Shown here: positions 8,432 through 63,648 of the stretch, piece by piece | Layout of the letters: the number at the start of each line of letters is the position of its first letter | Numbering within the stretch: position 1 is the first letter of the stretch | Origin: ANME-2 cluster archaeon | Lineage (GTDB): Archaea > Halobacteriota > Methanosarcinia > Methanosarcinales > Methanocomedenaceae | Direction of reading: 5' to 3' | DNA length: 64,000 bases | NCBI GenBank assembly: GCA_014237145.1 | Contig: JAAXOC010000089.1 | Location: 6,324 to 70,323 of the forward strand | Position numbers and translations under genes: made by a program | The notes under the pieces: generated by a model | Database searches by the model: none | The model's input: the letters and a program-made list of their open reading frames with translations, nothing else | Told to the model about the DNA's origin: nothing

Positions 8432-9328
8432 TCATTTTTTTGTTTCGATTTGAATGCTAAGCGTCTCACCACACTGCGGCAGGTATTCACCATACCGAGT
8501 AGGAATTAATTTTATTAAAGGCTTACCGAAAAATAAGATAAACGATACCCCGGCGGCATCTATCATGCGGTTTTTTCCATCTGATACCCTTAAATCCACA
8601 CTGGATGAGTGTACCATGTGCCAGTTCCCACTGCTTTTAAAGGTGTCAAACGGCGGCACAGTCCTGCTTTCACCGATCAAAGCGAACCTGTGCAGGGCGT
8701 GCTCACCAGTCGGGATGAATCCATCGAGCAGGTAACCGCCAACAGCATAACCATTGATAGCGCCGCTGCGACTGTGATCCGGGCAGTCGATAAGTGCAAA
8801 TCGCCTATCGGAAAACACCACTTCACCTGTAAAACCAAAGACATTACCATCTTCAGCCATGCCACAACCAACCTTTTTAACCGCACCAACAGGCACATCA
8901 AGCAGCATGTTGTTGCTCGCACGCACATAATCGTCAGGCGTGCGCACTTCAACATGCATGTGAGGGAAGTTCCAGAAATAGTAGTAACCGCTTCTGATGA
9001 ATGTGCCAAACTCTTCACCTGTGCGCACGCGGTCCCCTATTTCCACATCCGGCTTCACATGCATGATCTTTACAATAAACCCCTTGCAGCTAATCGCAGT
9101 TAAGTATTCCTTGAAATCGCGGTCCTTGAAGGGTGTGGGAGTATCGAATTCCCTGATATTCACAACCTCACCGTCAACAGGTGAGTACGCAGCCGAACCG
9201 AAGTCGCCGTATGCGATGTCTACCGCGCTGCCTGTCTCGTGTGCCGCAAACGGGCTTTTGAAAAACGAGAGTGCAGCGTCATCCGGCGCCATTAGTTCGA
9301 TGTTTTGATATGAAGCTGCAAGTTTCAT
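8432..9328 (-). CDS. Cytoplasmic M23/LytM-like (duplicated-hybrid-motif) domain protein, function unknown
   Basis: 298 aa, no signal peptide. HETGSAVDIAYGDFGSAAYSPVDGEVVNI ... IMHVKPDVEIGDRVRTGEEFGTFIRSGYYYFWNFPHMHVEV follows the M23 layout (H..D, G.V, HxH). The H-to-D spacing is non-canonical. Confidence 0.45.
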   Translation of the reverse strand: MKLAASYQNIELMAPDDAALSFFKSPFAAHETGSAVDIAYGDFGSAAYSPVDGEVVNIREFDTPTPFKDRDFKEYLTAISCKGFIVKIMHVKPDVEIGDRVRTGEEFGTFIRSGYYYFWNFPHMHVEVRTPDDYVRASNNMLLDVPVGAVKKVGCGMAEDGNVFGFTGEVVFSDRRFALIDCPDHSRSGAINGYAVGGYLLDGFIPTGEHALHRFALIGESRTVPPFDTFKSSGNWHMVHSSSVDLRVSDGKNRMIDAAGVSFILFFGKPLIKLIPTRYGEYLPQCGETLSIQIETKK

Positions 9329-9339
9329 TAAATCACCTC

Positions 9340-10323
9340 TTACAACTCCACATTATAGGAACAACACATGTTATCGACCTCATGGATATCCAGCCCGATC
9401 TCAGCGCATAATTGATACGCGCTCCGGCTCGGGACTGCGATCCTGTCGATCCCGCTCAATATCGCACATTCATCGAGCCGGGAGCGGTATCTCCCGCCAG
9501 GGCGCACGCAGCTTAAGGACAAGGGTGTTTGCGGGAATTCCTGCCTCGCCTTTGCGATCACCGATACAACATCCTCAAGCGCAGGAGGCAGTGTATCTGC
9601 ACAAGCTGTATTTTTTGTGGGAATAAATACCACTATAACGACAACATCCGGATCGTATTTCTTGATCATCTCAATCGCCCTGAACTCGCAGTCAAGCGCC
9701 CCGTTGTTCAATCCTGCGATGATATGCGGTGCGATGGGTATCCCTGCATCGGTAAGAAACCTGAGCGTGTTCTCGTAGTCGCTTACCGTATTCGGCAAAC
9801 CCAGTATCCCTGAGATTACGGCATCGCTCCCGATGCAGTCAACCAGTGCCATATCCAGCCATGTGGCAAGGGACCTTGCCTGCTCCTGTGTGATAATGCC
9901 AGTGTGGGCGCTCATTTTCAGATGAGTGTCATCCTTGATCTGCCTGATCTCATCTGAAAGTTCGTATGTCGGAACCGAGCCGTCAAGTTTGCTGCCGCCT
10001 GAGAGCAGGACCCCGCTGCGTCCCCTCTTTGCAAGATTTACAACTGCGGCACGGAGCTTGCCGCCACTGCCGTCAAGCATGTGTTCAAGATAGTGTTTTT
10101 CGCAGTGTTTGCAGTTCAATTCGCAGTCGGTGCCTGTGACTGAGACCGGGGTGAATGGCTCGTTGAAAAAGAGTATGGTGTTTGAAAATGAGTCCAGTCT
10201 GATCTTAAAGGATCTCAACATCTCTTTTTTTGCTGCTTCGCTAATATCCAGACCTTTTATTTTCTCCGGAACACGGTCAAGGTACACCCCGCCGTCTGAT
10301 GCTGTCATTCGTCGTCTCTCCAC
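9340..10323 (-). CDS. Radical SAM enzyme, type A (candidate LipS-type lipoyl synthase component)
   Basis: 327 aa. CX3CX2C motif in SVTGTDCELNCKHC, also LLSGGS, SAHTG and a C-terminal CC (NMCCSY). Paralog of 12639..13613. Confidence 0.7.
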   Translation of the reverse strand: MERRRMTASDGGVYLDRVPEKIKGLDISEAAKKEMLRSFKIRLDSFSNTILFFNEPFTPVSVTGTDCELNCKHCEKHYLEHMLDGSGGKLRAAVVNLAKRGRSGVLLSGGSKLDGSVPTYELSDEIRQIKDDTHLKMSAHTGIITQEQARSLATWLDMALVDCIGSDAVISGILGLPNTVSDYENTLRFLTDAGIPIAPHIIAGLNNGALDCEFRAIEMIKKYDPDVVVIVVFIPTKNTACADTLPPALEDVVSVIAKARQEFPQTPLSLSCVRPGGRYRSRLDECAILSGIDRIAVPSRSAYQLCAEIGLDIHEVDNMCCSYNVEL

Positions 10324-30287: not shown

Positions 30288-32096
30288 ATGATTTCTCCCA
30301 CTATAATAAGAATTGATCTATCTAACAAAAAAGTCAAATGTGAAAATATACCTGCCCCCCTCCTCCGCAAGTTCATGGGCGGCAAGGGCCTGGCAGCCCA
30401 CTACCTTTACCACGAGAACCCGCCCGGCTGCGCCCCCCTGACCCCTGACAACCTGCTTGCCATCATGAACGGGCCCCTGACCGGCGCACCCGCCACCAAC
30501 TGCGTCAACTTCTCAGTCTGTGCCAAAAGCCCGCTCACAGGCACCTGGAACGACAGCCACTGCAACGGCTGGTGGGGCACTGAACTGCGCCGTGCCGGGT
30601 ATATGGGTATCATCATCAGTGGACAGGCCGACTCCCCGGTATACATCAACATTGTGGATGATAAAGTGGAGATACTGGATGCTTCCGACCTGTGGGGTGT
30701 GGATACGTTCTCAAATCAGGCCGTCTTGAAAAAACGCCATTCTACTGACCGTGAGGCCAGGGTGATGACCATCGGGACCGCAGGCGAGCGAATGGCAAAA
30801 CTGGCAGTCATATTTGCAGAGAACCGCACAGCTGCCCGTGGTGGACTGGGTGCAGTCATGGGCAGCAAGCACTTGAAGGCCGTAGTGGTGTCCGGGCACG
30901 GGAAATTTGAACCCGCAGACCCTGAAGCATTCAGAGCCATAAGGAAAAAGATCAACAAGAAGGTCAGGACAAGTACAGGCGTGGAAAACCTCAGGAAGAT
31001 GGGTACTTCAGAACTTGTGGAGATAGTAAATGAAACCGATGGCTGGAGTAATCGCAATTATACATCAGGGCGGGATGACAAACTATCAGAGCACCTGGAC
31101 GGTTTTGCCATAAAAGAGAAATTGTGGGATGGCGGCAGCAGACGTCGGCCCTGCCCGGGCTGTGCCATACAGTGCAGCCACCTGGCAGTGGTGCAGGAGG
31201 GGCAATATCGCGGATTGACACACGACGGGCCAGAGTTCGAGTCCATTACCTTGCTGGGTTCTAACTGCGGTATCGATGACCCGGCGGCGGTCACGGCTGC
31301 TGAACACCTGTGCGACACATACGGACTGGATAGCATTAGCACGGGCAGCACTATCGCCTTTTTAATGGAATGTTATGAACGAGGGCTGATCAGTAAGGAG
31401 GAAACAAACGGGCTAAAACTTACCTTCGGCAGTGTCGATGCGCTGATAGAAACCATCCACATGATGGGGTCAGGTAAAGGGGCACTGGCATTTGCTGCAA
31501 ACGGCACAAGGGATGCCTCTGAAAGAATAGGGCAGGGTACAGAAGATTTCGCTATGAACGTCAAGGGCCTGGAGATACCTGCATACCTGCCCCAAACCGC
31601 AAAGGGCCAGGCACTGGCCTATGCCGTATCAGACAGGGGTGCCTGCCACCTGCGTCCATGGACCTACGGAAAGGAAGTGCTTGGCAGGGGGGGACAACTG
31701 GACCCAATGGCCACGACCGGAAAAGGTAAGATGGTCTGGGACGGGCAGCAGCGCAACGCTATCTATGATTCTATAGGAATCTGCAAGTTCTTTACATACG
31801 CTGCCGGATTGGATGAGCTATTAGAACTATATACTGCCTCGACCGGATTTGATATGGACCATGACGAATTCGATAGAGTAGGCAGGAGAGTGGCAGTACT
31901 TACCCGTGCTTTTAACAACAGGGAAGGATTTGGCAGGGATCAAGACACCTTGCCTGACAGGGTAATGAAAAGCAGCAGCAATCCGGTAACAGACCTGGAA
32001 CTGGATGCTATGCTGGATGAATTCTATTATGCGTCGGGTTTCACCAGTGATGGAATTGTGCCCGAACAGCTACTAATAGAACTTGGGATCAAGTGA
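30288..32096 (+). CDS. aor: Tungsten-type aldehyde:ferredoxin oxidoreductase (AOR family)
   Basis: The ORF track starts at 30243. I prefer ATG 30288 or 30282 (MISPTIIRIDL). GGKGLAAHYL N-terminus, CPGCAIQC [4Fe-4S] motif and DSIGICKF region. Confidence 0.85.
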   Translation: MISPTIIRIDLSNKKVKCENIPAPLLRKFMGGKGLAAHYLYHENPPGCAPLTPDNLLAIMNGPLTGAPATNCVNFSVCAKSPLTGTWNDSHCNGWWGTELRRAGYMGIIISGQADSPVYINIVDDKVEILDASDLWGVDTFSNQAVLKKRHSTDREARVMTIGTAGERMAKLAVIFAENRTAARGGLGAVMGSKHLKAVVVSGHGKFEPADPEAFRAIRKKINKKVRTSTGVENLRKMGTSELVEIVNETDGWSNRNYTSGRDDKLSEHLDGFAIKEKLWDGGSRRRPCPGCAIQCSHLAVVQEGQYRGLTHDGPEFESITLLGSNCGIDDPAAVTAAEHLCDTYGLDSISTGSTIAFLMECYERGLISKEETNGLKLTFGSVDALIETIHMMGSGKGALAFAANGTRDASERIGQGTEDFAMNVKGLEIPAYLPQTAKGQALAYAVSDRGACHLRPWTYGKEVLGRGGQLDPMATTGKGKMVWDGQQRNAIYDSIGICKFFTYAAGLDELLELYTASTGFDMDHDEFDRVGRRVAVLTRAFNNREGFGRDQDTLPDRVMKSSSNPVTDLELDAMLDEFYYASGFTSDGIVPEQLLIELGIK

Positions 32097-32141
32097 ACTA
32101 ATTTTGTAAACTGATTGAGTGAACCGATTAAGTGAACCGGA

Positions 32142-51196: not shown

Positions 51197-51275
51197 CACT
51201 ATCAATTATTCCTGATATGTCCACTATTCCTGATATGTCCATTGTCACTGATATGCCCACTATCCCTGATATGTA
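51197..51275. repeat. Four tandem copies of an 18-bp unit in the dacZ upstream region
   Basis: CACTAT(CAATTAT)TCCTGATATGTC, CACTATTCCTGATATGTC, CATTGTCACTGATATGCC, CACTATCCCTGATATGTA. They lie 130-210 bp upstream of the dacZ start codon. Confidence 0.7.
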
Positions 51276-52548: not shown

Positions 52549-53493
52549 ATGTCTAATACCGATACCTCATTAATTCAGGAAAGTGTCCTTTCACATATTA
52601 ATGAAAAAATACAAATGTTGAATTCAAAACGGCCTCTACCAGTTGATGCTGTAAACAAATTACAAAAAGAGATTCGACTTTACCATACATACCATTCAAA
52701 TGCTATAGAAGGAAATACCCTTACACTTCCAGAGACAAAAATTGTTCTCGAAGAAGGCATAACAATCGGTGGAAAGTCAATAAAGGATCATCTCGAAGCT
52801 ACCAATAATGCAAAGGCGTTTGATTTATTGGAAGACATCGCTAAAAGCAATAAAGGAATAGATCATGTTGTTATACAGCATATCCATGAAATTGTTACTG
52901 CTGGTATTCTTGAGGAGGCAGGAAAATATCGTACTAAAAATGTAAGAATAACCGGTGCGATAAAAACACCTCCTGACTGGTCAAAAGTCATCATACTATT
53001 GGATGAATTGATCAATAAGATCGATCAAAGTAACATGCATCCTATTGAAACTGTTGCTTTTCTTCATCATAGATTTGTAGAGATTCATCCATTCATAGAT
53101 GGTAATGGGAGAGTAGCACGTTTGCTGACTAATTTATACTTAATTACCAAAGGTTATCCCCCTATAGTTATAACGACAGAAAATAGAAGGAAATATTATA
53201 AATTCCTTAAGTCGGCAGATAATGGAAACCTATCCCCGTTTGTTAATTTCATTGCTAAAGCTGTAGATGAGAGCATTACAATGTATCTGTCAATCTTCGG
53301 TGGAACTGATGAATTGCTGCCTCTAAAAGAACTTGCTAAGGAAACTACATATTCTCAGGAATACTTGAGCCTCCGGGCCAGACAGGGAGTTTTGGATGCA
53401 GTCAAGATTGGGAGAGTATGGTATTCATCAAAACGTGCTTTAAAAGAATACAGATTACAAAATGTTATTCCAAAAAGAAAATTAAACTTGTAA
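52549..53493 (+). CDS. Fic/Fido-domain protein with C-terminal DNA-binding-like tail
   Basis: 314 aa with the canonical Fic motif HPFIDGNGRVARLL. Confidence 0.88.
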   Translation: MSNTDTSLIQESVLSHINEKIQMLNSKRPLPVDAVNKLQKEIRLYHTYHSNAIEGNTLTLPETKIVLEEGITIGGKSIKDHLEATNNAKAFDLLEDIAKSNKGIDHVVIQHIHEIVTAGILEEAGKYRTKNVRITGAIKTPPDWSKVIILLDELINKIDQSNMHPIETVAFLHHRFVEIHPFIDGNGRVARLLTNLYLITKGYPPIVITTENRRKYYKFLKSADNGNLSPFVNFIAKAVDESITMYLSIFGGTDELLPLKELAKETTYSQEYLSLRARQGVLDAVKIGRVWYSSKRALKEYRLQNVIPKRKLNL

Positions 53494-53687
53494 ATTCAAT
53501 CGATTTATTTCAATTCTATTGGAATTTTATAGACCGGTTGCTTAAAGAGGGTACACCGGCAATACTCTCCGAACGCGGCGTGCCCCCTGTCCGTAAGGTG
53601 GAGCATAGTATGGAGCTTTTTCCCGCACCAGCATAAAAAGGTTTAACAAACCCAAAATGCAAAAAATACTAATGCTTATAATCCACT

Positions 53688-53903
53688 ATGACCACAATAC
53701 AGGTAAGCAATACCCTTCACAATGAACTAATCAAGAGAAAACTCTTTGACAGGGAGACATACGAAGAAGTTATCTGGGACCTGATAGAGGACACAAGTGA
53801 ATTGAACGACCAGACAAAAAGAGATATCGAAAAAGCCAGATCTGAAATAAAAGCCGGAAAGGTCCACACACTTGCACAGGTCAAGAAAGAGCTGGGATTA
53901 TGA
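53688..53903 (+). CDS. Small antitoxin-like protein
   Basis: 71 aa. Its stop overlaps (ATGA) the start of a 24-codon stub, MTYGIIFSDSALKQ..., that looks like a truncated RelE/ParE N-terminus. Confidence 0.5.
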   Translation: MTTIQVSNTLHNELIKRKLFDRETYEEVIWDLIEDTSELNDQTKRDIEKARSEIKAGKVHTLAQVKKELGL

Positions 53904-54027: not shown

Positions 54028-55971
54028 TCACTCCTTCTCAAGCATCCTCGCCTTCTCGACAAAAGCCAGAACCGTAATAACAAAAGTGGCATGAGCCCAT
54101 GTAAGCGGGCTGACACTTAAAGGACTTCCGTCAAAAGGATTCAACTGCTCCGCTAAAATACCGGTCTGGGTAGCACGATCGGTGACCCATAGCAAGATCT
54201 CCTCTGGTTTTTCCAGGTCGCTAATGCTCTCTGCTTTCTGGATATACCACTGGGCGACCCATAGTGTACAAATAAACCAGGGATTGCCTGGTATTTTCTC
54301 AGTATCGTACTCTAATACTTGGTGATACTTATCCCCATAGAACCGGGCAATGCCCCCTATATCCGTTTTTACAGAGAGTTTCTCCTCAATAGCCTTCATG
54401 GTATTGACCACCCTCACATCATCCGGGGGCAGCACCTTGAACTGTGAAAGGGCATACAGGCTGGCATCAACTGTCTCATCCCACGGATCGATGCTGCGCA
54501 GGAACCGCCCCAGTTCTTCATCATACAGATGTGTCTCGATCCCTGTTTTTATCTCATCGGCAGCCGTGCTGTATTTCCCTGCAAGGTCATTATCCCCGTA
54601 CAACCGTGCAAACCCTGCTGCACACTTCAGGCCTGCGTATACGGTCGAAGATGTATAGGTATGGACAGCCCTATGCTCCTCCCATAAGTTATAACTGGGT
54701 TTTGGAAGCCCGGTTGCAGGATCCCGGTACCTTGTCATGAAATCAGCAGCCGGTTTTACCATAGAATTATAGAGCTTATCGATCATTGCAATAGATCTGG
54801 TAGCTTTATAGTGGTTCCACAGGGACACGATTATAAGGGCAGTACTATCTTCCTGTATTGGAAGCTGTATATGTCCCTCAGGGGTGAGCCAGGGCATCCA
54901 GCCACTTGCAAGTGTACCTGTAGGATTGTATTTTTGCAGGAAATACCCATGCTCACTGATAAGGTCTTGACAGTACTCGAAAAAATTAGACACAATTCCG
55001 GAATAACGTGCCATGTCCAGCGACATGGCAATGAATGCACTGTCCCGCGGCCACATATAACTGTATGAATCCATGTTGAACCGTTCAAGGATGTCACTAT
55101 CATTGGCAGCGATGATCGCCCCTCCATTGTCGATCTGCGACCGTACTATAAGCAGGCTGTGTTTGAACAGGTCTGCCACCTTTGCTGGAAGGTCAAAAAA
55201 GTCATATTTCTCTTTATTGACCCATGAATGAAAGTACTGCCTGGTTTCGGCCATCATTTGTTCAGGAGTTCTTTCAAGTACCAGTTCATTGAGCCCCTTG
55301 ACATCATAAAATGTTTTTCCGGCCGCTATCCAGTAATACAGTGTTTTTGTCTCACCGGCTGCAAGATGCTGGGAGAACCTGATAAAACTGTTCACTGCTC
55401 CTACCTGGATTGAGTTCATATTAAGCTCTGCCGAGTGTATCATACCAGATTTGTTCTCTCCTTTGGGTCCTATCTCATACTGGTCGAAGTGTGGTGAGCC
55501 ATTGATAAGGAAATAGCGGCAGCGCTGGTAATGTATTATTGACTGCACTGCAGGATCATACACTCCTGTATCCCCCATCGGGTTCTCGTAAAGTGCAATG
55601 TCATGGGAGAAAAGCAGCTTTAGCTCGATATCCTCTGTGTCAGTATTGGTTATTACTATCCTGCGAATGAACACGTTCTCGAAAGGATGCACGCATTCGT
55701 TGAACCTCAAATTAATATCGAGCCGGTCGTTGCGGTAATAGGAGTCGGTTACTAATGTATCTTTCTTATAACCAAGTCTTGAGACCCAGTCATCTCCTAT
55801 CAGGGATACCAGGTCCTTGTTTTTCCCTTCGACCATCACTCCTACCCGGCAGTGGTGGCCGTTTACGTGGTTCTCATCCCCCACACGAGGAAAGTACATA
55901 TCCCGTATGCTTGCGTTCCTGTCAAGGTTCACTAACAGGGACCCATTTCCGATAACAAGAGGTTTTGGCAT
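54028..55971 (-). CDS. Glycoside hydrolase family 15 (glucoamylase/trehalase-like)
   Basis: 647 aa. YMWPRDSAF and SYNLWEEH catalytic-region motifs. N-terminal beta-sandwich plus (alpha/alpha)6 layout. Confidence 0.85.
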   Translation of the reverse strand: MPKPLVIGNGSLLVNLDRNASIRDMYFPRVGDENHVNGHHCRVGVMVEGKNKDLVSLIGDDWVSRLGYKKDTLVTDSYYRNDRLDINLRFNECVHPFENVFIRRIVITNTDTEDIELKLLFSHDIALYENPMGDTGVYDPAVQSIIHYQRCRYFLINGSPHFDQYEIGPKGENKSGMIHSAELNMNSIQVGAVNSFIRFSQHLAAGETKTLYYWIAAGKTFYDVKGLNELVLERTPEQMMAETRQYFHSWVNKEKYDFFDLPAKVADLFKHSLLIVRSQIDNGGAIIAANDSDILERFNMDSYSYMWPRDSAFIAMSLDMARYSGIVSNFFEYCQDLISEHGYFLQKYNPTGTLASGWMPWLTPEGHIQLPIQEDSTALIIVSLWNHYKATRSIAMIDKLYNSMVKPAADFMTRYRDPATGLPKPSYNLWEEHRAVHTYTSSTVYAGLKCAAGFARLYGDNDLAGKYSTAADEIKTGIETHLYDEELGRFLRSIDPWDETVDASLYALSQFKVLPPDDVRVVNTMKAIEEKLSVKTDIGGIARFYGDKYHQVLEYDTEKIPGNPWFICTLWVAQWYIQKAESISDLEKPEEILLWVTDRATQTGILAEQLNPFDGSPLSVSPLTWAHATFVITVLAFVEKARMLEKE

Positions 55972-56010
55972 TGTATCATAACCTTTAATGTAGATTACTT
56001 CTATAATAGT

Positions 56011-56696
56011 AGTTATTAAGTGATAGTTATTAAGTGATAGTTATTAAGTGATAGTTATTAAGTGATAGTTATTAAGTGATAGTTATTAAGTGATAGTTAT
56101 TAAGTGATAGTTATTAAGTGATAGTTATTAAGTGATAGTTATTAAGTGATAGTTATTAAGTGATAGTTATTAAGTGATAGTTATTAAGTGATAGTTATTA
56201 AGTGATAGTTATTAAGTGATAGTTATTAAGTGATAGTTATTAAGTGATAGTTATTAAGTGATAGTTATTAAGTGATAGTTATTAAGTGATAGTTATTAAG
56301 TGATAGTTATTAAGTGATAGTTATTAAGTGATAGTTATTAAGTGATAGTTATTAAGTGATAGTTATTAAGTGATAGTTATTAAGTGATAGTTATTAAGTG
56401 ATAGTTATTAAGTGATAGTTATTAAGTGATAGTTATTAAGTGATAGTTATTAAGTGATAGTTATTAAGTGATAGTTATTAAGTGATAGTTATTAAGTGAT
56501 AGTTATTAAGTGATAGTTATTAAGTGATAGTTATTAAGTGATAGTTATTAAGTGATAGTTATTAAGTGATAGTTATTAAGTGATAGTTATTAAGTGATAG
56601 TTATTAAGTGATAGTTATTAAGTGATAGTTATTAAGTGATAGTTATTAAGTGATAGTTATTAAGTGATAGTTATTAAGTGATAGTTATTTAGTGAT
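56011..56696. repeat. Near-perfect 14-bp tandem array, 49 units (AGTTATTAAGTGAT)
   Basis: 686 bp = 49 x 14. Only the last unit differs (AGTTATTTAGTGAT). The array fills most of the divergent GH15/GT4 intergenic region. Confidence 0.95.
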
Positions 56697-56805
56697 TGAA
56701 ATTAGGGGTTTTTCAATTCTATACAGTATATTACTTCATATACTTTAGTAACTGCGAGCGTTAGTGAGCAATTAATTGTGCACTACCCCTCAGGAAGACA
56801 GATAA

Positions 56806-58350
56806 ATGACAACAAAGCAGCAAAAAACAGATGATATAAGTGTAGGTTTTCTCTCGTATGAATTTCCACCAAAAATTTTTGGAGGAGTTGGGGTACATGT
56901 GACCGAACTGGCAAGACATCTTGCAGAGAGTATCCGGCAAGTGCATGTGTTCACATCACATGTGGAAGGATTGGACTGCCAGAAAGCAGGAAGTGTGTTT
57001 GTGCACAGGTCATCTAAACCTTTAGTACCTGTATCGGACCGTTCCTATAATATGTTTGAAAGGATATTGAACAATTTCAATGTGGCCGGGATGATGGATA
57101 AACATCCTTTAAATAATAATAAACTTGACCTGCTGAATTCACAAGAAGAATTGGTCCGGATGGCTGCAACAGAAGCTAAAAATGACACCGGACTGCTTCC
57201 AGTGGTGACTTCGCACAATACCGATGTTAACAAGCTCAAACCAGACCGGCTGGGCGTTGTTATGGGGCAGAATGTGGTGGATAAGGTGGGCAGGTTCACT
57301 GCAGTATCGAAATACATGCGAACGGAACTTGACCAGACCTTTGGTATTGCGTCACATGTTGAAGGATTGGATGGCCAGAAGGCAGGAAGTGTGTATGTTT
57401 CAAAGTCATCTAAACCTTTATTACCTGCATCGAACTATTCAAGTAAGGATTTTGAAAGGGTCATGACAAATTTCAATGTAGCCGGAATGGTGGAGAAACA
57501 TCTTTCCAGTGCAGGACTTGACCTGCTGCATTCACATGGAGGATTGATCCAGCTGGCTGCAACAGAAGCTAAAAATGACACAGGACTACCCCTGGTGATG
57601 ACAGCTCACAGTACCGAGATCAACAGGCTCAGGCCAGATCGGCTGAGTGTTGTTATGGAGCATAATGTGGTGGATAAAGTGGACAGGTTCATTGCAGTAT
57701 CAGGATATATGCGAAGGGAACTTAACCAGACATTTGGTATCAATTACAACAAGATCACTGTCATACCAAACGGCGTGGATACTGCGATCTTCAAACACCA
57801 GAAAGCGGATGATATCCGCAGGAAATACCAGCTTGATAACAGGTTTGTCGTGCTCTTCGTCGGCAGGGATGACCCGCAAAAGGGTGTGAAGTACCTGGTC
57901 AATGCCGTGAAGAATCTTGCTAAGCAGATACCTGAGATCATGCTTGTCATGGTCGGCCATCAGGATATTTATAATGATAAAAATATCCTCTGCCTCCCGC
58001 GTGTTAGCAGGAGCGAACTCGTCAAGTTACATTCCCTTTCCGATGTGTTCGTGCTGCCCAGTGTCTATGAGCCGTTCGGTATTGTCCTCCTGGAGGCCAT
58101 GGCATGTGAAACCCCGTGTATTGGAATCCGGACTGGCGGGATGCCTGATATCATAGACCATGACAGGACAGGGCTTCTGGTGGAGCCGAGGAGTGATGAG
58201 GGTATTTCAGAGGCGATCGCCAGGTTATACCACGACCCTGAAAAGCGGTACAGAATGGGTAAAAAAGGAAGGGACAAGGTAATCTCAGACTTTAGCTGGA
58301 AGGATATTTCGGATAAGACCATTAAAGTATACCAGCAGGTACTGCATTAG
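56806..58350 (+). CDS. GT4-family glycosyltransferase with an internally duplicated N-terminal domain segment
   Basis: 514 aa. The N-terminus has FPPKIFGGVGVHV, and the C-terminal domain has the EX7E region VLPSVYEPFGIVLLEAMAC. Residues about 51-182 and 183-312 are a tandem duplicate. Confidence 0.85.
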   Translation: MTTKQQKTDDISVGFLSYEFPPKIFGGVGVHVTELARHLAESIRQVHVFTSHVEGLDCQKAGSVFVHRSSKPLVPVSDRSYNMFERILNNFNVAGMMDKHPLNNNKLDLLNSQEELVRMAATEAKNDTGLLPVVTSHNTDVNKLKPDRLGVVMGQNVVDKVGRFTAVSKYMRTELDQTFGIASHVEGLDGQKAGSVYVSKSSKPLLPASNYSSKDFERVMTNFNVAGMVEKHLSSAGLDLLHSHGGLIQLAATEAKNDTGLPLVMTAHSTEINRLRPDRLSVVMEHNVVDKVDRFIAVSGYMRRELNQTFGINYNKITVIPNGVDTAIFKHQKADDIRRKYQLDNRFVVLFVGRDDPQKGVKYLVNAVKNLAKQIPEIMLVMVGHQDIYNDKNILCLPRVSRSELVKLHSLSDVFVLPSVYEPFGIVLLEAMACETPCIGIRTGGMPDIIDHDRTGLLVEPRSDEGISEAIARLYHDPEKRYRMGKKGRDKVISDFSWKDISDKTIKVYQQVLH

Positions 58351-58515
58351 AGCTCTTCGTTCCAGATTTTTCAATCTATAGGAAAATATATACTTTCTTG
58401 AGGAAGGTCTGGTGAAATCGTAATATGGTTTTGGGATTGTACTGTTTACGACGTTTCTGGAAAGGTATTTCAATAGTGATCCACATATATTTCATTGATA
58501 ATATGAATTATCGGA

Positions 58516-58932
58516 GTGAAAATTATGGAATATCTTGGCATAACAATCACAGCTGATTCCACCAGTAAGGAGATCGTACCAATTGCAAAGGCAATCCATG
58601 AATTGTTGGGACTTCCCATCACCATGCGTACACTGAACAACCTGGGTGTGAGGATTGAAAAAGGTAAAGTACTGGACTATAAATATACCGGACCTACTCT
58701 GGAAAAGGCACTTGAGACCAACTCAACCATCAGGTCTATTCCAAAGACAGGAGATTATTCCAGCATACCTGTAGTGGTGACCACTATTAAAAATGAAGAC
58801 GGATATGGAATTGCTGCTATAGGAATTGTGGATGTGGTCGGTACTGTTGACCTGGGAGTAGCTTTTGGAAATTATCCTGAGATAGTAAACCAGGTAAGTG
58901 ATATCCTGAAATCCAGGGTAATCACACCTTAA
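58516..58932 (+). CDS. Hypothetical conserved small protein
   Basis: 138 aa. No motif I can name with confidence. Confidence 0.4.
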   Translation: MKIMEYLGITITADSTSKEIVPIAKAIHELLGLPITMRTLNNLGVRIEKGKVLDYKYTGPTLEKALETNSTIRSIPKTGDYSSIPVVVTTIKNEDGYGIAAIGIVDVVGTVDLGVAFGNYPEIVNQVSDILKSRVITP

Positions 58933-58949
58933 TACAGAGGGCAGTTATT

Positions 58950-59486
58950 CTATAGTTCCCATCTGTTATCTACAGGGAATTGTTCATTTATCCACATCAA
59001 GACACGCCCGCCGTGTATGATATAATATTCCCTGGACAGCACTGGGACGTCATTGAATATTCCCCCTCCCTTTTTCATTCCGATATTGAGGATATCCCTT
59101 CTGGTCTCTAACTTGTGTTTCCTCAATATCCGCCCTATTGGGATGTCGGCCCGTATCAGGTCAGCTTTCATGCCAGGAGGTATCAGGTCTATAGGGGCAA
59201 GTGAGCGGGCGAACACATAGGACATTCCCGAAACCTTAAGCACGACCTCCCTGTGGTTCACAGGGTCATTTTGCCTGATGTCCAGCAGTTCTGCCTCTGC
59301 TTCGGTGGCCTCTCCCACTTCCTGGATCCGGGTCACAACATCTACCTGCTGCTTTGTCATGACTTCCAGCAGGTATGTAACCGACCCGTCTGTTCCTGCA
59401 CATATTCGTAGGGTGGTTGGGATATCAAGGGTTGTTAGCTTGTCCAGGGGTCCGGGTTCCATCCTCACACCTGAATTATGAAACAA
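58950..59486 (-). CDS. Chorismate-lyase-like (UbiC/DUF98 fold) protein
   Basis: 178 aa. The GTDGSVTYLLEVM segment is typical of the chorismate pyruvate-lyase-like family. The start may be an internal Met at 59462. Confidence 0.5.
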   Translation of the reverse strand: MFHNSGVRMEPGPLDKLTTLDIPTTLRICAGTDGSVTYLLEVMTKQQVDVVTRIQEVGEATEAEAELLDIRQNDPVNHREVVLKVSGMSYVFARSLAPIDLIPPGMKADLIRADIPIGRILRKHKLETRRDILNIGMKKGGGIFNDVPVLSREYYIIHGGRVLMWINEQFPVDNRWEL

Positions 59487-59756
59487 TTATTCCCGGACTT
59501 CTTTTTTCGCCATGTTTCGCCGCTGTTTTGAAGTATAGCCGGTGGCATTATTCAGGAATTCCCTGAATCTCCTGTTGGTATCGAGTATTTCCTCGTCAGG
59601 GACGTTCGGGTTAGGCGTTGTGTCCACTCTTAACTTTTTATCTATAATACTGGCCTCAACACGCTGAAGTGCGCCGTAACTGACGATGAGTTTTCCATCC
59701 TCTTCGGTCACCGGAACCTGGAAACTGTCCTGCAATACTTCTTTTATGCGGTCCAT
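59487..59756 (-). CDS. Hypothetical small protein
   Basis: 89 aa. Abuts the downstream gene with no gap. Confidence 0.4.
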   Translation of the reverse strand: MDRIKEVLQDSFQVPVTEEDGKLIVSYGALQRVEASIIDKKLRVDTTPNPNVPDEEILDTNRRFREFLNNATGYTSKQRRNMAKKEVRE

Positions 59757-59899
59757 TTCAGGCTTGAATCCTCGCTTTAACTTGTATTCCTGAATTTATA
59801 TCACCTTTATGTGTCTGTTAATTGCATAGTGATAAAATACTTTGCATTTTTTCGTAGTGTGCCAGAATAACAAGATTTTAGAAGGAATGCCTGAAACAT

Positions 59900-60223
59900 T
59901 TAATGTGCTCCACCACTAAGATTTAACCCAATTACTCCAATTATTATCAGTCCAAGTGATATTATTTTCAGTGCAGTTACCGGTTCCTTGAACCACAATA
60001 TTCCCACAGTTACGATAAGTGCAGTTCCTATGCCTGCCCATATTGCATAAGCAACACTTACATCGATCTTTTTCAGGGCAAATGTCAATGAACCAAGGCT
60101 AAGCAAATAGAAGATGATCATTAATATTGACGGAACTGCTTTAGTGAAACCATAGGATAATTTCATGCATGTGGTGCCAGCCACTTCAAAAATTATTGCT
60201 ATAATCAAATAGAATAGACTCAA
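59900..60223 (-). CDS. Small multidrug resistance (SMR/EmrE-like) transporter
   Basis: 107 aa, four TM segments, and the membrane-embedded Glu in IIFEVAGTTCMKLS. Confidence 0.85.
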   Translation of the reverse strand: MSLFYLIIAIIFEVAGTTCMKLSYGFTKAVPSILMIIFYLLSLGSLTFALKKIDVSVAYAIWAGIGTALIVTVGILWFKEPVTALKIISLGLIIIGVIGLNLSGGAH

Positions 60224-60257
60224 AAAATCACTCCTGTGATTTTACACAATAATATCA

Positions 60258-60665
60258 TCATTCCAATTCCAGCCGCTTCGCCAACTCGGCCAAACTCGTA
60301 CAAAGCACGACAGACCTCTCGATCATCAAGTTCACTACCCCCTCAATACCAAGCGTCCTGAAATCTGTCCGCAGCCCGTACACAGGCTTACCCAGGGCAT
60401 GGGCATATCCTATCTCCCACGCCGTGCCCGAATCCACATCCACACCGTCAAGCACTGCTACCAGTATGTCAGCCTCATCAATGGCGGCCACGTTCTTGCT
60501 AAATATGGACTCCTGTCTGGCATCCAGTTCGGAATCAATCTCGTTTGAGTGCTCCTGGGGCAGGAAGACACCCATACCTATTCTTTCCAGCTCATCTCTT
60601 AGCCTGCTATTAAAATCGCATTCAGCCTCTGAAAAAAGCGGTGCTGCAAGGTATACATTTCTCAT
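60258..60665 (-). CDS. Nucleoside 2-deoxyribosyltransferase-like protein
   Basis: I prefer the start at MRNVYLAAPLFS. DSGTAWEIGYAHALGKPVYG is the family core. Confidence 0.7.
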   Translation of the reverse strand: MRNVYLAAPLFSEAECDFNSRLRDELERIGMGVFLPQEHSNEIDSELDARQESIFSKNVAAIDEADILVAVLDGVDVDSGTAWEIGYAHALGKPVYGLRTDFRTLGIEGVVNLMIERSVVLCTSLAELAKRLELE

Positions 60666-60882
60666 GAGATCTAAATGGTCGCTAAAGGCAAATAAGTTTT
60701 CTAAAAGGAATTGAATCGAATCATTTTCAATATCTAAGTCTATCCTGCCTTTCAACAATGTAGTAAAAAACAAAAAAAATCCGCCTGGTCCCATCCCGGA
60801 TGAACGCTGATACTGCATACGAAATCTGCGTTCATCTGTAGTTCGTTATAATTCAAAAGACCAGAAGAAATTAAAAAATCTC

Positions 60883-63648
60883 TTATTTCGCCAGGCTTTC
60901 CCTTAGCACTTCCAGCCCGCGCTCCAGTGCCTCTTCGATCTTCCTCGCATCAGGACCCCCGCCCTGTGCCAGTTCAGTCCTGCCGCCGCCGCCGCCGCCA
61001 ACGACCTTTGACATTTCCCTGACAAGGTCACCTGAGTTTGCACCATTTTCCAGTGCTTTATCACCGGCTGCCGCTACAATCTTTGCCCCGCCCAGCTCGC
61101 TGGCCAGCAGTGCAACTACATCGGATTCTTTAGTGAACTTAGCTGCCGCTTTTACCAGCTCTTCGATATCGGCACCGGGCAGGGTACGGGCTATAACCCT
61201 GAATCCGCCAATGTCCACTGCATCTGAAATCAACGAACCCACTCTTGCCGAGGCCAGGTCTTCCTTCAGCCTGGCGTTCTCCTTTTTGAACTCCTTCCAT
61301 TCATTGAAGAACCTGGCAGTGGTCTCAGGCAGGTGTTCAGGTGCAACCTTCAATTCATCGGCGCTCAGCCACAGCAGGTCGTCCAGTTCCTGCCAGCGCT
61401 TTACTGCCGCCTCGCCTGCCGCATACTCCAGCCGTTCCACGCCGTCCTGTATCCGCTCTGCCTTTAGTATCTTAATAGGACCAATAAGCCCGGTATTGCT
61501 AACATGGGTGCCGCCGCACGCCTCCACGTCATCCCCTACCCTGAGCACCCGAATCTGTTTACCTGGCGGCACACCGCCCTGGTACAGCACGAACCCGAAC
61601 TTCTGCTCGGCCTCGGTCCTGTCCATCCAGGTGGTCTCCACAGGGATGTTGGCCATCACTGTCTGGTTGGCTATAAGTTCGATCTCCTTGAGTTCTTCAT
61701 TGGTGATGCGTTTGAAATGGGACAGGTCCAGACGTGCCCGCTCAGCGCTCTTCTGGGCGCCAGTCTGCCAGATATGGTTGCCCAGCACCTTCTTGGCAGC
61801 ATCGTTCACTACATGGGTGGCAGTATGGTGGCGCATATGTGCCAGACGTCTCTTTCTATCCACAGCCCCGTCCACAGTATCCCCTGGTTCCAGGTCGATC
61901 ATATCCTCGAAAATAGTATGAAAAATCACGCCCTGCTCGATCTGGACATCCACTACTTGGTAGGTGGAATTCCCTTTGGTGATGATACCGTGGTCATGAG
62001 GCTGCCCACCGCCCTCAGGATAGAACTGGGTCCTGTCAAGTATGACATTGCCGTCAATAACTGCCACGACCTTTGCCTGGAATTCAAGCTCTTCAGGCAG
62101 GTCATAATACGACTTCTCTGTATCAGGCAGGTTTTCTATACCGGGAATAACTTGTTCAACCTCTTCCTTATCCTCTGCTTTGCTGTGGCTTTCAGCCACA
62201 AGTGAGTAGAATGTATCTGGCAGGTCTATCCTCAGGCCGATCTCTTCTGCCACATCTGCCGTGATCTCAGGAGATATGCCGTGGGTGTCATACATCTGGA
62301 TGATCTCACCTAGTGGGAATTCCTCGCCCTTATCCATATAATGTCGTGCGCTCTTTGCAACCAGACGCCGTCCACGCTCCAGGGTATCGGCATACTTGTC
62401 TTCCTCTCTGTCAAGTATCTCTACAATAGTTTTTAGACGTTCACTGAACTCAGGATACTCGGGCAGCTTGTCTATCTGCATGGTAACGATGTCTGATAGT
62501 AGTACATCCATGCCTGCCTCAGCCATAAGCCGCAGGGTCCGGCGCAGTACCAGCCGTGCCAGGTATCCTGCCTTTACATTGGATGGGATGATACCATCCC
62601 CGAACATAAATGCCAGGCACCTGCTGTGGTCAGCGATGGCGTATACCCTTTCCACAGGTTCCATAATAGCCTGCAGTTCTTCAACCGGAATGCCGATCTC
62701 GGCCGCCACTTTCTTGCGCAGTTCCATGAGGTTGGCCTGTCCTGTGATATCCATCAACCCGGCAAGCTTTGCGTTTTTGGCCAGGATATTGGCATATTCG
62801 GGGTCGTCCAGTCTGTGCTCTACACCTGCAAGGTCCATTAGTTCACTGACTACCTCCGGGAACACAGCATCATAGATGGTGGGCGAACCCTTGCTGGCCC
62901 ATACGAATCTCTCAAGACCGTAACCCGTGTCCACGATGTAATTGTCCATCTTTACATATGGGTCTCCCTTGATCATTATATCCCCGCCTTTTTTCTGCTG
63001 CAGGTCCATGAACACCAGTGTGGCTACCTCAAGCCCGGCCACCAGCACTTCTACACAGGGCCCGGCATTACCGCCACCGGCCCATGGTTCTTCTTTATAG
63101 GTCACGGCATTGGGGTCTGTGCCCAGGTCATTTAGCAGGGCATCACAATATTCTACTGTCTCGTTCTTCCAGTAGATCTCTTTTTGTGGATTATTAAAAG
63201 CATGATGCGCCATCATCTCGAAGTTTGTGAGATGGCGGCCGCTGCGTCCTACTGAATCAAGGTCAGGTAAGCGGATGCACGGCTGGCTGATGGTAAGGGG
63301 ATTGGCTGGAGGTGGTACCATTCCAGAGGTGACGAACGGCTGGAAATCGGCAATACTTGCAATGGTGAGGTAGATATCGTCCCGCCACCTGGCAATAACA
63401 GGGTACCTGTCCACCCTTGTATGGTTGTGCTCCTCGAAGAAGGAGAGGAACTTCTCCCTCATCTGTGAGAGGTCGTACTGCTTTGTGAAGACCGGGCTGC
63501 CTATGAATGAGTACGGATCACATGGTGCGTCTCCGCATGTTATTCTGTCCGGGTCCCGTGTCCAGTAGGCACTGCCGCATTTTGAGCAGGTTTTTCTCTC
63601 AAATCCGTTCTCAAAGAAATAACTCAGTTGGTATTCGTCCTCAAGCAT
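60883..63648 (-). CDS. alaS: Alanyl-tRNA synthetase, archaeal type
   Basis: 921 aa. N-terminal zinc-like CSKCGSAYW...CGDAPC, editing-domain HMRHHTATH and ACGGTHV. Confidence 0.95.
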   Translation of the reverse strand: MLEDEYQLSYFFENGFERKTCSKCGSAYWTRDPDRITCGDAPCDPYSFIGSPVFTKQYDLSQMREKFLSFFEEHNHTRVDRYPVIARWRDDIYLTIASIADFQPFVTSGMVPPPANPLTISQPCIRLPDLDSVGRSGRHLTNFEMMAHHAFNNPQKEIYWKNETVEYCDALLNDLGTDPNAVTYKEEPWAGGGNAGPCVEVLVAGLEVATLVFMDLQQKKGGDIMIKGDPYVKMDNYIVDTGYGLERFVWASKGSPTIYDAVFPEVVSELMDLAGVEHRLDDPEYANILAKNAKLAGLMDITGQANLMELRKKVAAEIGIPVEELQAIMEPVERVYAIADHSRCLAFMFGDGIIPSNVKAGYLARLVLRRTLRLMAEAGMDVLLSDIVTMQIDKLPEYPEFSERLKTIVEILDREEDKYADTLERGRRLVAKSARHYMDKGEEFPLGEIIQMYDTHGISPEITADVAEEIGLRIDLPDTFYSLVAESHSKAEDKEEVEQVIPGIENLPDTEKSYYDLPEELEFQAKVVAVIDGNVILDRTQFYPEGGGQPHDHGIITKGNSTYQVVDVQIEQGVIFHTIFEDMIDLEPGDTVDGAVDRKRRLAHMRHHTATHVVNDAAKKVLGNHIWQTGAQKSAERARLDLSHFKRITNEELKEIELIANQTVMANIPVETTWMDRTEAEQKFGFVLYQGGVPPGKQIRVLRVGDDVEACGGTHVSNTGLIGPIKILKAERIQDGVERLEYAAGEAAVKRWQELDDLLWLSADELKVAPEHLPETTARFFNEWKEFKKENARLKEDLASARVGSLISDAVDIGGFRVIARTLPGADIEELVKAAAKFTKESDVVALLASELGGAKIVAAAGDKALENGANSGDLVREMSKVVGGGGGGRTELAQGGGPDARKIEEALERGLEVLRESLAK

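Follow-up and report, generated by a model that had tools for sequence, protein, structure and literature searches.

Why should the gap between two divergent archaeal genes be filled by 49 head-to-tail copies of a 14-bp sequence, all except the last of them identical? The array lies at 56011-56696 (686 bp) of a 64-kb stretch of DNA, hereafter the window, and by direct reading and count it consists of 48 identical units AGTTATTAAGTGAT followed by one terminal variant, AGTTATTTAGTGAT (unit 49, 56683-56696), in which A>T at 56690 places a T at unit position 8. The answer that we favour, with moderate confidence, is that the array is a real, non-coding chromosomal minisatellite of ANME-2a, recently expanded from an older pair of 14-bp direct repeats, near-neutral and possibly modulatory. 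The ancestral pair would sit between the divergent core promoters of two genes, one for a GH15 enzyme of glucan-degrading type and one for a GT4 enzyme of glycogen-synthase type.

Tandem Repeats Finder places the array at 56010-56696 with a period of 14, 49.1 copies, 99% matches and a score of 1367, making it by far the strongest repeat of the window and the sole long array there. A pattern search allowing up to two mismatches returned 51 unit matches across the whole window against about 0.67 expected, and none of 100 shuffles of the window reached that number. In all, four methods agree with the original prediction of 49 head-to-tail copies, the first 48 identical and the last with one substitution. 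An identical 49.1-copy array is borne by NCBI contig JAAXOG010000084.1 of assembly GCA_014237115.1, whose GH15 and GT4 proteins are identical to those of the window at every residue. The search for the unit elsewhere that had been proposed was run within the 64-kb window, where only two single matches, each with two mismatches and at chance level, lie outside the array. Related loci amounting to 315 kb yielded no comparable array, and neither the 241 million JGI metagenome records nor IMG/VR contain a match to the two-unit 28-mer.

What does the unit itself encode? Its plus strand contains five A, six T and three G (six A, five T, three C and no G on the minus strand), giving an array of 21% G+C with no C on the plus strand; at 36% A and 43% T on that strand, it is not enriched in A. 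The unit contains TAA and TGA, TAG is created at every junction, the period is not divisible by 3, and no ORF of at least 60 aa lies inside the array on either strand, all of which agrees with the original description of the array as non-coding. Single-strand folding of six units gave a minimum energy of 0 kcal/mol on either strand, with no hairpin or cruciform potential, and a search of 55700-57100 against Rfam at E<=1 returned nothing; neither the family match nor the stable fold of a structured non-coding RNA was found.

Two weaker repeats occur in the same window. A 13-bp repeat, GATTAAGTGAACC, runs over 32087-32139 (4.1 copies, 72% matches) between convergent gene ends. It shares TTAAGTGA with the 14-mer, a likeness that we judged a coincidence given its mere 72% regularity and its position between convergent ends. 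An imperfect 18-bp repeat, TATCCCTGATATGTCCAC, spans 51207-51274 (3.8 copies, 82% matches), in the gap that separates the stop codon of an M29-peptidase-like gene from the start of a gene for a DacZ-type diadenylate cyclase, and is present in JAAXOG010000084.1 as well.

Which genes flank the array, and in what genome? On the minus strand, 54028-55971 encodes an intact GH15-family glycoside hydrolase of 647 aa, glucoamylase- or oligosaccharide-amylase-like, which matches Pfam Glyco_hydro_15 (PF00723, 1.9e-31) and NCBIfam TIGR01577 (321 bits, under the curated cut-off) and aligns over its full length with Methanosarcinales orthologues at 77-91% identity. On the plus strand, 56806-58350 encodes an intact GT4 glycosyltransferase of 514 aa, which matches Pfam Glyco_transf_4 (PF13439) and Glycos_transf_1 (PF00534, 6e-41); its best family match is the glgA_Coryne glycogen-synthase subfamily (NCBIfam TIGR02149, 231 bits, under the cut-off), and its full-length alignments with proteins from MAGs of ANME-2a, ANME-3 and related uncultured Methanosarcinaceae show 63-90% identity. 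The start codons, at 55969-55971 (minus) for GH15 and 56806 (plus) for GT4, are 834 bp apart, and both align at residue 1 with those of orthologues, which upholds the original statement that the array occupies most of an 834-bp gap. Neither N-terminus resembles a signal peptide by eye. From family matches that lie under curated cut-offs, both proteins are predicted to be cytoplasmic enzymes of glycogen-type metabolism, and a common control region for the synthesis and breakdown of a storage glucan would be a reasonable reading of their arrangement, no more. Within the GT4 gene there is a 393-bp internal tandem duplication (56956-57740, 2.0 copies, 79% identity), through which some 131 residues of the N-terminal GT4 domain occur twice. 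One copy is missing in Methanococcoides and Methanohalophilus homologues, and the 514-aa form that bears the duplication can be aligned from end to end in MAGs of ANME-2a, ANME-3 and related uncultured Methanosarcinaceae.

Gene order here is conserved: the neighbours are Fic, a 71-aa protein, GH15, GT4, DUF2111, EmrE-like and AlaRS, and the alanyl-tRNA synthetase gene (alaS) lies 2.5 kb away. Because of this conserved order and the nearby alaS, the locus is, judged by its gene content, chromosomal. The closest GH15 proteins in a GTDB set of one genome per species belong to cold-seep Methanosarcinales MAGs and Ca. Methanocomedens sp. S7142MS1 (89-91% amino acid identity), followed by uncultured Methanosarcinaceae MAGs including ANME-3 (Ca. 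Methanovorans; 79-85%) and then by Methanococcoides and Methanohalophilus (77-79%). Since its nearest GH15 relatives are ANME-2a (Ca. Methanocomedens) MAGs, the host of the window is on this protein's showing an ANME-2a-type archaeon. Just downstream of GH15, 52549-53903 holds a Fic-domain gene and then a 71-aa ORF without a family match, which could be a toxin-antitoxin-like pair. We also considered an iteron- or centromere-like array or a replication origin and rejected these candidates: the neighbourhood lacks Rep, Orc1 and Par genes, and the skew does not switch.

Is the array real, and how long is it? The Logan assembly (k=31) of SRR1237970 contains a contig that is 100% identical to window positions 56660-62350. 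Its first base precedes the variant base 56690 by exactly 30 nt, the point at which, for k=31, k-mers cease to be unique and the perfect repeat takes over. The position of this break implies that SRR1237970 reads hold the right junction together with at least ~45 nt of perfect repeat, which exceeds the single or double perfect units of any relative. The independence of this contig from the deposited genome is limited if SRR1237970 represents the genome's own reads, as it may. The alternative is that only a few true copies exist, as in relatives, and that the assembler over-looped its de Bruijn graph. Short reads give no copy count for a perfect 14-bp loop that exceeds their own length, the Logan assembly of SRR1237970 does halt at the repeat boundary, and contig L059, from a related population, also starts within its own array. 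However, arrays that reads can span (about 10 copies or fewer) normally assemble exactly, as the five-copy arrays of L054 and L058 did; both junctions of the window's array are clean and match orthologous positions; and the Logan break needs more perfect repeat than any relative has. We thus regard an assembly artefact as unlikely and a long array as very probably real. The caution originally voiced about the assembly was justified insofar as a k=31 assembly breaks at the repeat, whereas the artefact reading itself is disfavoured by the at least ~45 nt of perfect repeat. Forty-nine is the assembler's estimate, short reads being unable to span a perfect array of 686 bp; the true figure probably runs to tens of copies and could be heterogeneous. 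The start of L059 within its array is a hint of a longer or heterogeneous array in a sister population. In practice, the locus marks a spot where ANME-2a assemblies break or miscount.

Is the repeat itself new at this site? Throughout Methanosarcinales the GH15/GT4 pair keeps its divergent arrangement, with a spacer of 181-269 bp overall (seven ANME-2a MAGs have 181-195 bp, and the MAGs of ANME-3 and related uncultured Methanosarcinaceae have 191-269 bp); in the window the spacer is 834 bp with the array and 148 bp without it. A scan of JGI metagenomes with a conserved 32-mer of the right flank yielded 15 more ANME-2a loci. Altogether, 20 other ANME-2a contigs span the gap, and they carry 2, 3 or 5 imperfect tandem copies of the 14-mer at the orthologous position; in other words, a proto-repeat is there in every ANME-2a relative with a gap-spanning contig. 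Two clear units are found in most of these loci, three in L019, L055, L057, L066 and L017, and five in L054 and L058. The units read AATTATTAAGTGAT AGTTATTAAGTGAT in L021 and AATTATTGAGTGAT AGTTATTAAGTGAT in L006, and the five-unit series is composed of AGTTATTAAGTGAT, three copies of AGATATTATGTGAT and then AGTTATTTTGTGAT. A degenerate extra unit, CTATATTATGTGTT, lies further left in many loci. The array therefore has what is expected of a minisatellite or VNTR, namely head-to-tail, near-identical units in the range of ~10-100 bp and a copy number that differs among related genomes at an orthologous site. The changeable copy number that had been foreseen is borne out between related lineages, with 2, 3, 5 and 49 units at this exact site. 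The 3-copy and 5-copy alleles are each identical across two to three separate datasets, which indicates that low-copy alleles are stable.

Other duplications were seen at or near this site. In the ANME-3 loci L012 and L013 the GH15 leader is covered by 2-3 repeats of GTCACAACCTTTAAC, and a 12-bp duplication occurs in L004; the GH15/GT4 spacer region seems prone to duplication. L059, the closest metagenome relative, carries a 24-bp array of ~8-10 copies (93-95% matches) at its positions 9246-9488, past the window's end. L006 (JAIWAT010000039.1) is labelled as an 'Anaerolineales bacterium' MAG, is ~88% identical to the ANME-2a window and has the GH15/GT4 pair, and this contig is probably mis-binned.

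How, then, did two units become 49? Over two 600-nt coding segments (the GH15 5' end and the GT4 3' end), L054 and L058 are 97.2% and 96.7% identical to the window, respectively, and they share with it a derived left flank, the first unit and a T at position 8 of the last unit. L056, L062 and L063, in the ~94-96% identity range (~96% in the GH15 segment), have two units only. The common ancestor of L054, L058 and the window would accordingly have had two units, which we infer to be AGTTATTAAGTGAT followed by AGTTATTT.GTGAT. In the lineage of the window, the first (proximal) unit would have multiplied to 48 copies while the distal variant unit stayed at the right edge of the array; in the sister lineage of L054 and L058, a different variant unit would have multiplied three times, independently. 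The terminal unit at 56683-56696 is probably the old distal unit of the ancestral pair and not a new mutation, because the final unit of L054 and L058, AGTTATTTTGTGAT, has a T at position 8 too.

When did this happen? At ~3% divergence, about 10 substitutions are expected in 672 bp on the window's branch and none is seen (Poisson P ~5e-5), which implies that the expansion, or the last homogenisation, is much younger than the split from L054 and L058. The array is best read as a lineage-specific, very recent expansion of an old proto-repeat. Its perfection could also reflect ongoing concerted evolution or selection, beyond youth alone. Of the very recent or ongoing slippage and expansion originally proposed, the youth of the array holds, with 0 substitutions against ~10, and slippage or unequal recombination is its most likely mechanism.

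Does the array interrupt either promoter? The left flank (55972-56010, minus strand), which reads ACTATTATAGAAGTAATCTACATTAAAGGTTATGATACA-ATG, is predicted to contain the GH15 core promoter and a short leader. Its TATA candidate, CTATTATAG (minus strand, 56001-56009), precedes the ATG by 29 nt, and in the alignment ANME-2a relatives have ATAATATAG at an identical 29-nt TATAG-to-ATG distance. The array starts immediately upstream of this candidate, at about the position of a BRE. The right flank (56697-56805, plus strand) is made up of a 74-nt block (56697-56770), nearly invariant in the alignment of ANME-2a relatives, and a variable 35-nt leader with a Shine-Dalgarno-like AGGAAG. The GT4 TATA candidate, ATTCTATA (56716-56723), which reads ATTATATA in most relatives, is separated by 19 nt from the array and by 82 nt from the ATG downstream. 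From these candidates, transcription would be predicted to start at about 55980-55985 on the minus strand and about 56745-56750 on the plus strand. The TATA consensus of methanogens is TTTATATA. By hand count, the repeat unit matches 4-5 of its 8 positions and the flank candidates match 6-7, which speaks against the earlier suggestion that the TTATTAA of each unit mimics a TATA element.

Since the TATA candidates lie in unique flanks at conserved distances from the start codons, gain or loss of units would leave the TATA-to-start spacing unchanged, contrary to the original idea that copy number alters promoter spacing. All that would vary is how far apart the two promoters stand and how often the motif occurs. 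Each gene seems to have retained a core promoter and leader of its own, together with one neighbouring unit, with the expansion between them. In archaea, activators and repressors bind between divergent TATA elements, a typical spot for shared operators. From the predicted promoter layout, the array would thus lie outside the core promoters, in the zone where archaeal upstream regulators usually act.

The GT4 leader shows a separate difference. In most ANME-2a relatives (e.g. L005, L006 and L060) the GT4 ribosome-binding site is closely preceded by a palindrome of the TGCAGAAYTCTGCA type, perfect as TGCAGAATTCTGCA in several of them. At 56771-56805 the window has GTGCACTACCCCTCAGG in its place, with the 3' arm missing, and it is possible that an operator or a leader hairpin was lost in the array-bearing genome.

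Could the array nevertheless be a switch? The original prediction proposed a contingency locus, in which frequent copy-number change within the population would alter transcription of GH15 and/or GT4. Copy number does differ between lineages at the site (2, 3, 5 and 49), the array abuts the GH15 TATA candidate and comes within 19 nt of the GT4 candidate, and graded control by upstream repeats occurs in bacteria, as with the 7-bp upstream repeats of Haemophilus hmw1A. Against this, a change in the number of units alters neither a reading frame nor, for the promoters as predicted here, core-promoter spacing, the TATA-to-ATG distances being conserved. The genes would not act at the surface or with host or phage; they are glucoamylase-like and glycogen-synthase-like, cytoplasmic and metabolic by family match, and the identity of low-copy alleles across separate datasets points to stability. 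A contingency locus or rheostat of this kind is improbable, and the idea of a contingency switch is unsupported and anatomically unlikely. A related proposal makes the 14-mer a selected operator that binds a regulator of glucan turnover, its multiplication serving as a protein sink or as an insulator that uncouples the promoters. In its favour, 2-3 units with an AGTGAT core persist at 14-bp spacing in all ANME-2a relatives whose contigs span the site, and their location is typical of shared archaeal operators. However, among relatives with two units, the unit sequences are roughly as variable as the spacer beside them, core included (AGCGAT, AGTGAC, AGTGGT, AGTAAT), whereas the adjoining 74-nt block is nearly invariant, and there is no adjacent regulator gene. 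A search of 666 kb for two AGTGAT cores 14 bp apart returned this intergenic site and two chance matches in bacterial loci, so that no regulon is visible, and the motif on its own shows no enrichment in the rest of the window. The persistence of the 14-bp spacing is compatible with a binding site and makes only a weak case for the units as a constrained operator; we consider a selected operator array doubtful. The same low probability applies to a copy-number rheostat, in which the 14-mers would bind a regulator that coordinates synthesis by GT4 with breakdown by GH15, and a rise from 2 to 5 to ~49 units would tune or uncouple the promoters. If this were true, a copy number varying within ANME-2a populations would be a contingency-like control of carbon storage in an uncultured methane oxidiser.

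By far the least probable origin is the repeat-forming process of Borgs or import by a mobile element. The perfect head-to-tail units of a length not divisible by 3 do recall Borg intergenic repeats (PMC9879509), and by hand count the flanks are partly similar to the unit, the left one agreeing with it at 7 of 14 positions and the right one at 8 of 14. Yet this locus is chromosomal, in a gene order conserved across Methanosarcinales with alaS 2.5 kb away, the unit was already in situ in relatives, the array is the sole one of its kind in 64 kb, its unit is not A-enriched, and the 28-mer is absent from viral contigs.

We therefore return to a near-neutral minisatellite grown from a direct-repeat pair. 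What drove the growth? Replication slippage and/or unequal recombination between genome copies would be the mechanism, and the lack of secondary structure in either strand leaves no added hairpin-driven route. Archaeal PolB and PolD slip on tandem-repeat templates, according to work cited in PMC9879509, and ploidy is variable in methanogens (PMC6749651). The ancestral 2-3 units may have been a shared cis-regulatory site for two opposing enzymes, though signs of constraint on them are weak. Expansion would have pushed the promoters ~660 bp further apart and multiplied the motif while each gene kept its TATA candidate, its leader and one unit; with the elements of each promoter left in place, it would be tolerated. 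Its outcome is probably neutrality or a mild modulation, and the location of the array, where archaeal activators or repressors bind, makes some influence on expression plausible.

Why does this matter? One site with 2, 3, 5 and ~49 units, its seed visible in relatives, makes a natural series of the birth of a minisatellite; such a stepwise series from a conserved proto-repeat is a nice case that will not surprise specialists. The host group, ANME-2a, comprises environmentally important, uncultured marine methane-oxidising archaea, and the site is one where archaeal regulators normally bind. The array could be used as a strain marker, and the locus offers a simple test case of whether archaeal divergent promoters tolerate a separation of 0.7 kb. 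Were its copy number both variable and consequential, it would be among the first repeat-based variators of expression described in archaea, a prospect that the present evidence does not support.

How does the array compare with known systems? The promoter contingency tracts of bacteria have units of 1-7 nt, form part of the core promoter or are closely tied to it, and govern surface or virulence factors, classically by altering core-promoter spacing; in Haemophilus, a TA tract occupies the divergent promoter of hifA and hifB. The array resembles these loci only in its upstream position, which for hifA/hifB is also between divergent genes, and differs from them in its 14-nt unit, its 686-bp tract, its location outside both predicted core promoters and the metabolic nature of its genes. 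The repeats of Methanoperedens Borgs (Schoelmerich et al. 2023, PMC9879509) are closer, with units free of SNPs, recent independent formation, intergenic unit lengths not divisible by 3 and flanking partial repeats. As perfect units in at least 3 copies over at least 50 nt, the array falls within the definition of a Borg repeat (PMC9879509), yet it is not on a Borg element among many arrays and lacks their strong A enrichment. Borg repeats are pervasive, A-rich and extrachromosomal, whereas the ANME-2a array is single, chromosomal and not A-enriched, and its seed was a complete pre-existing pair of units.

With bacterial VNTRs of the kind used in MLVA, the array shares intergenic identical units, a copy number that differs between close lineages, and diverged edge units around a homogeneous interior, as slippage or unequal recombination predicts; it differs in that 49 perfect copies are at the high end and the host is an uncultured archaeon. 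Its nearest kin are in its own order. Subirana and Messeguer (2019, PMC6749651) surveyed 142 archaeal genomes and found Methanosarcina rich in satellites of 10-30 nt, mostly with units below 30 nt, which they ascribed to local replication errors, at 7 to 89 per Mb. With 25-89 per Mb in most species (PMC6749651, Table 1), short-unit satellites are abundant in that genus, and the original remark that such a locus is rarely described in archaea goes too far where the repeats themselves are concerned. Like the ANME-2a array, these satellites are found within Methanosarcinales, have tandem units of 10-30 nt, would originate in local replication errors and are usually specific to a species or lineage (PMC6749651). 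That survey dealt with cultured Methanosarcina and not with marine ANME-2a, and it gives no locus-level history. The array belongs to this known kind, the short-unit satellites of Methanosarcinales, and unlike those in the survey it can be seen together with its progenitor and its intermediates of 2, 3 and 5 units, between two divergent promoters.
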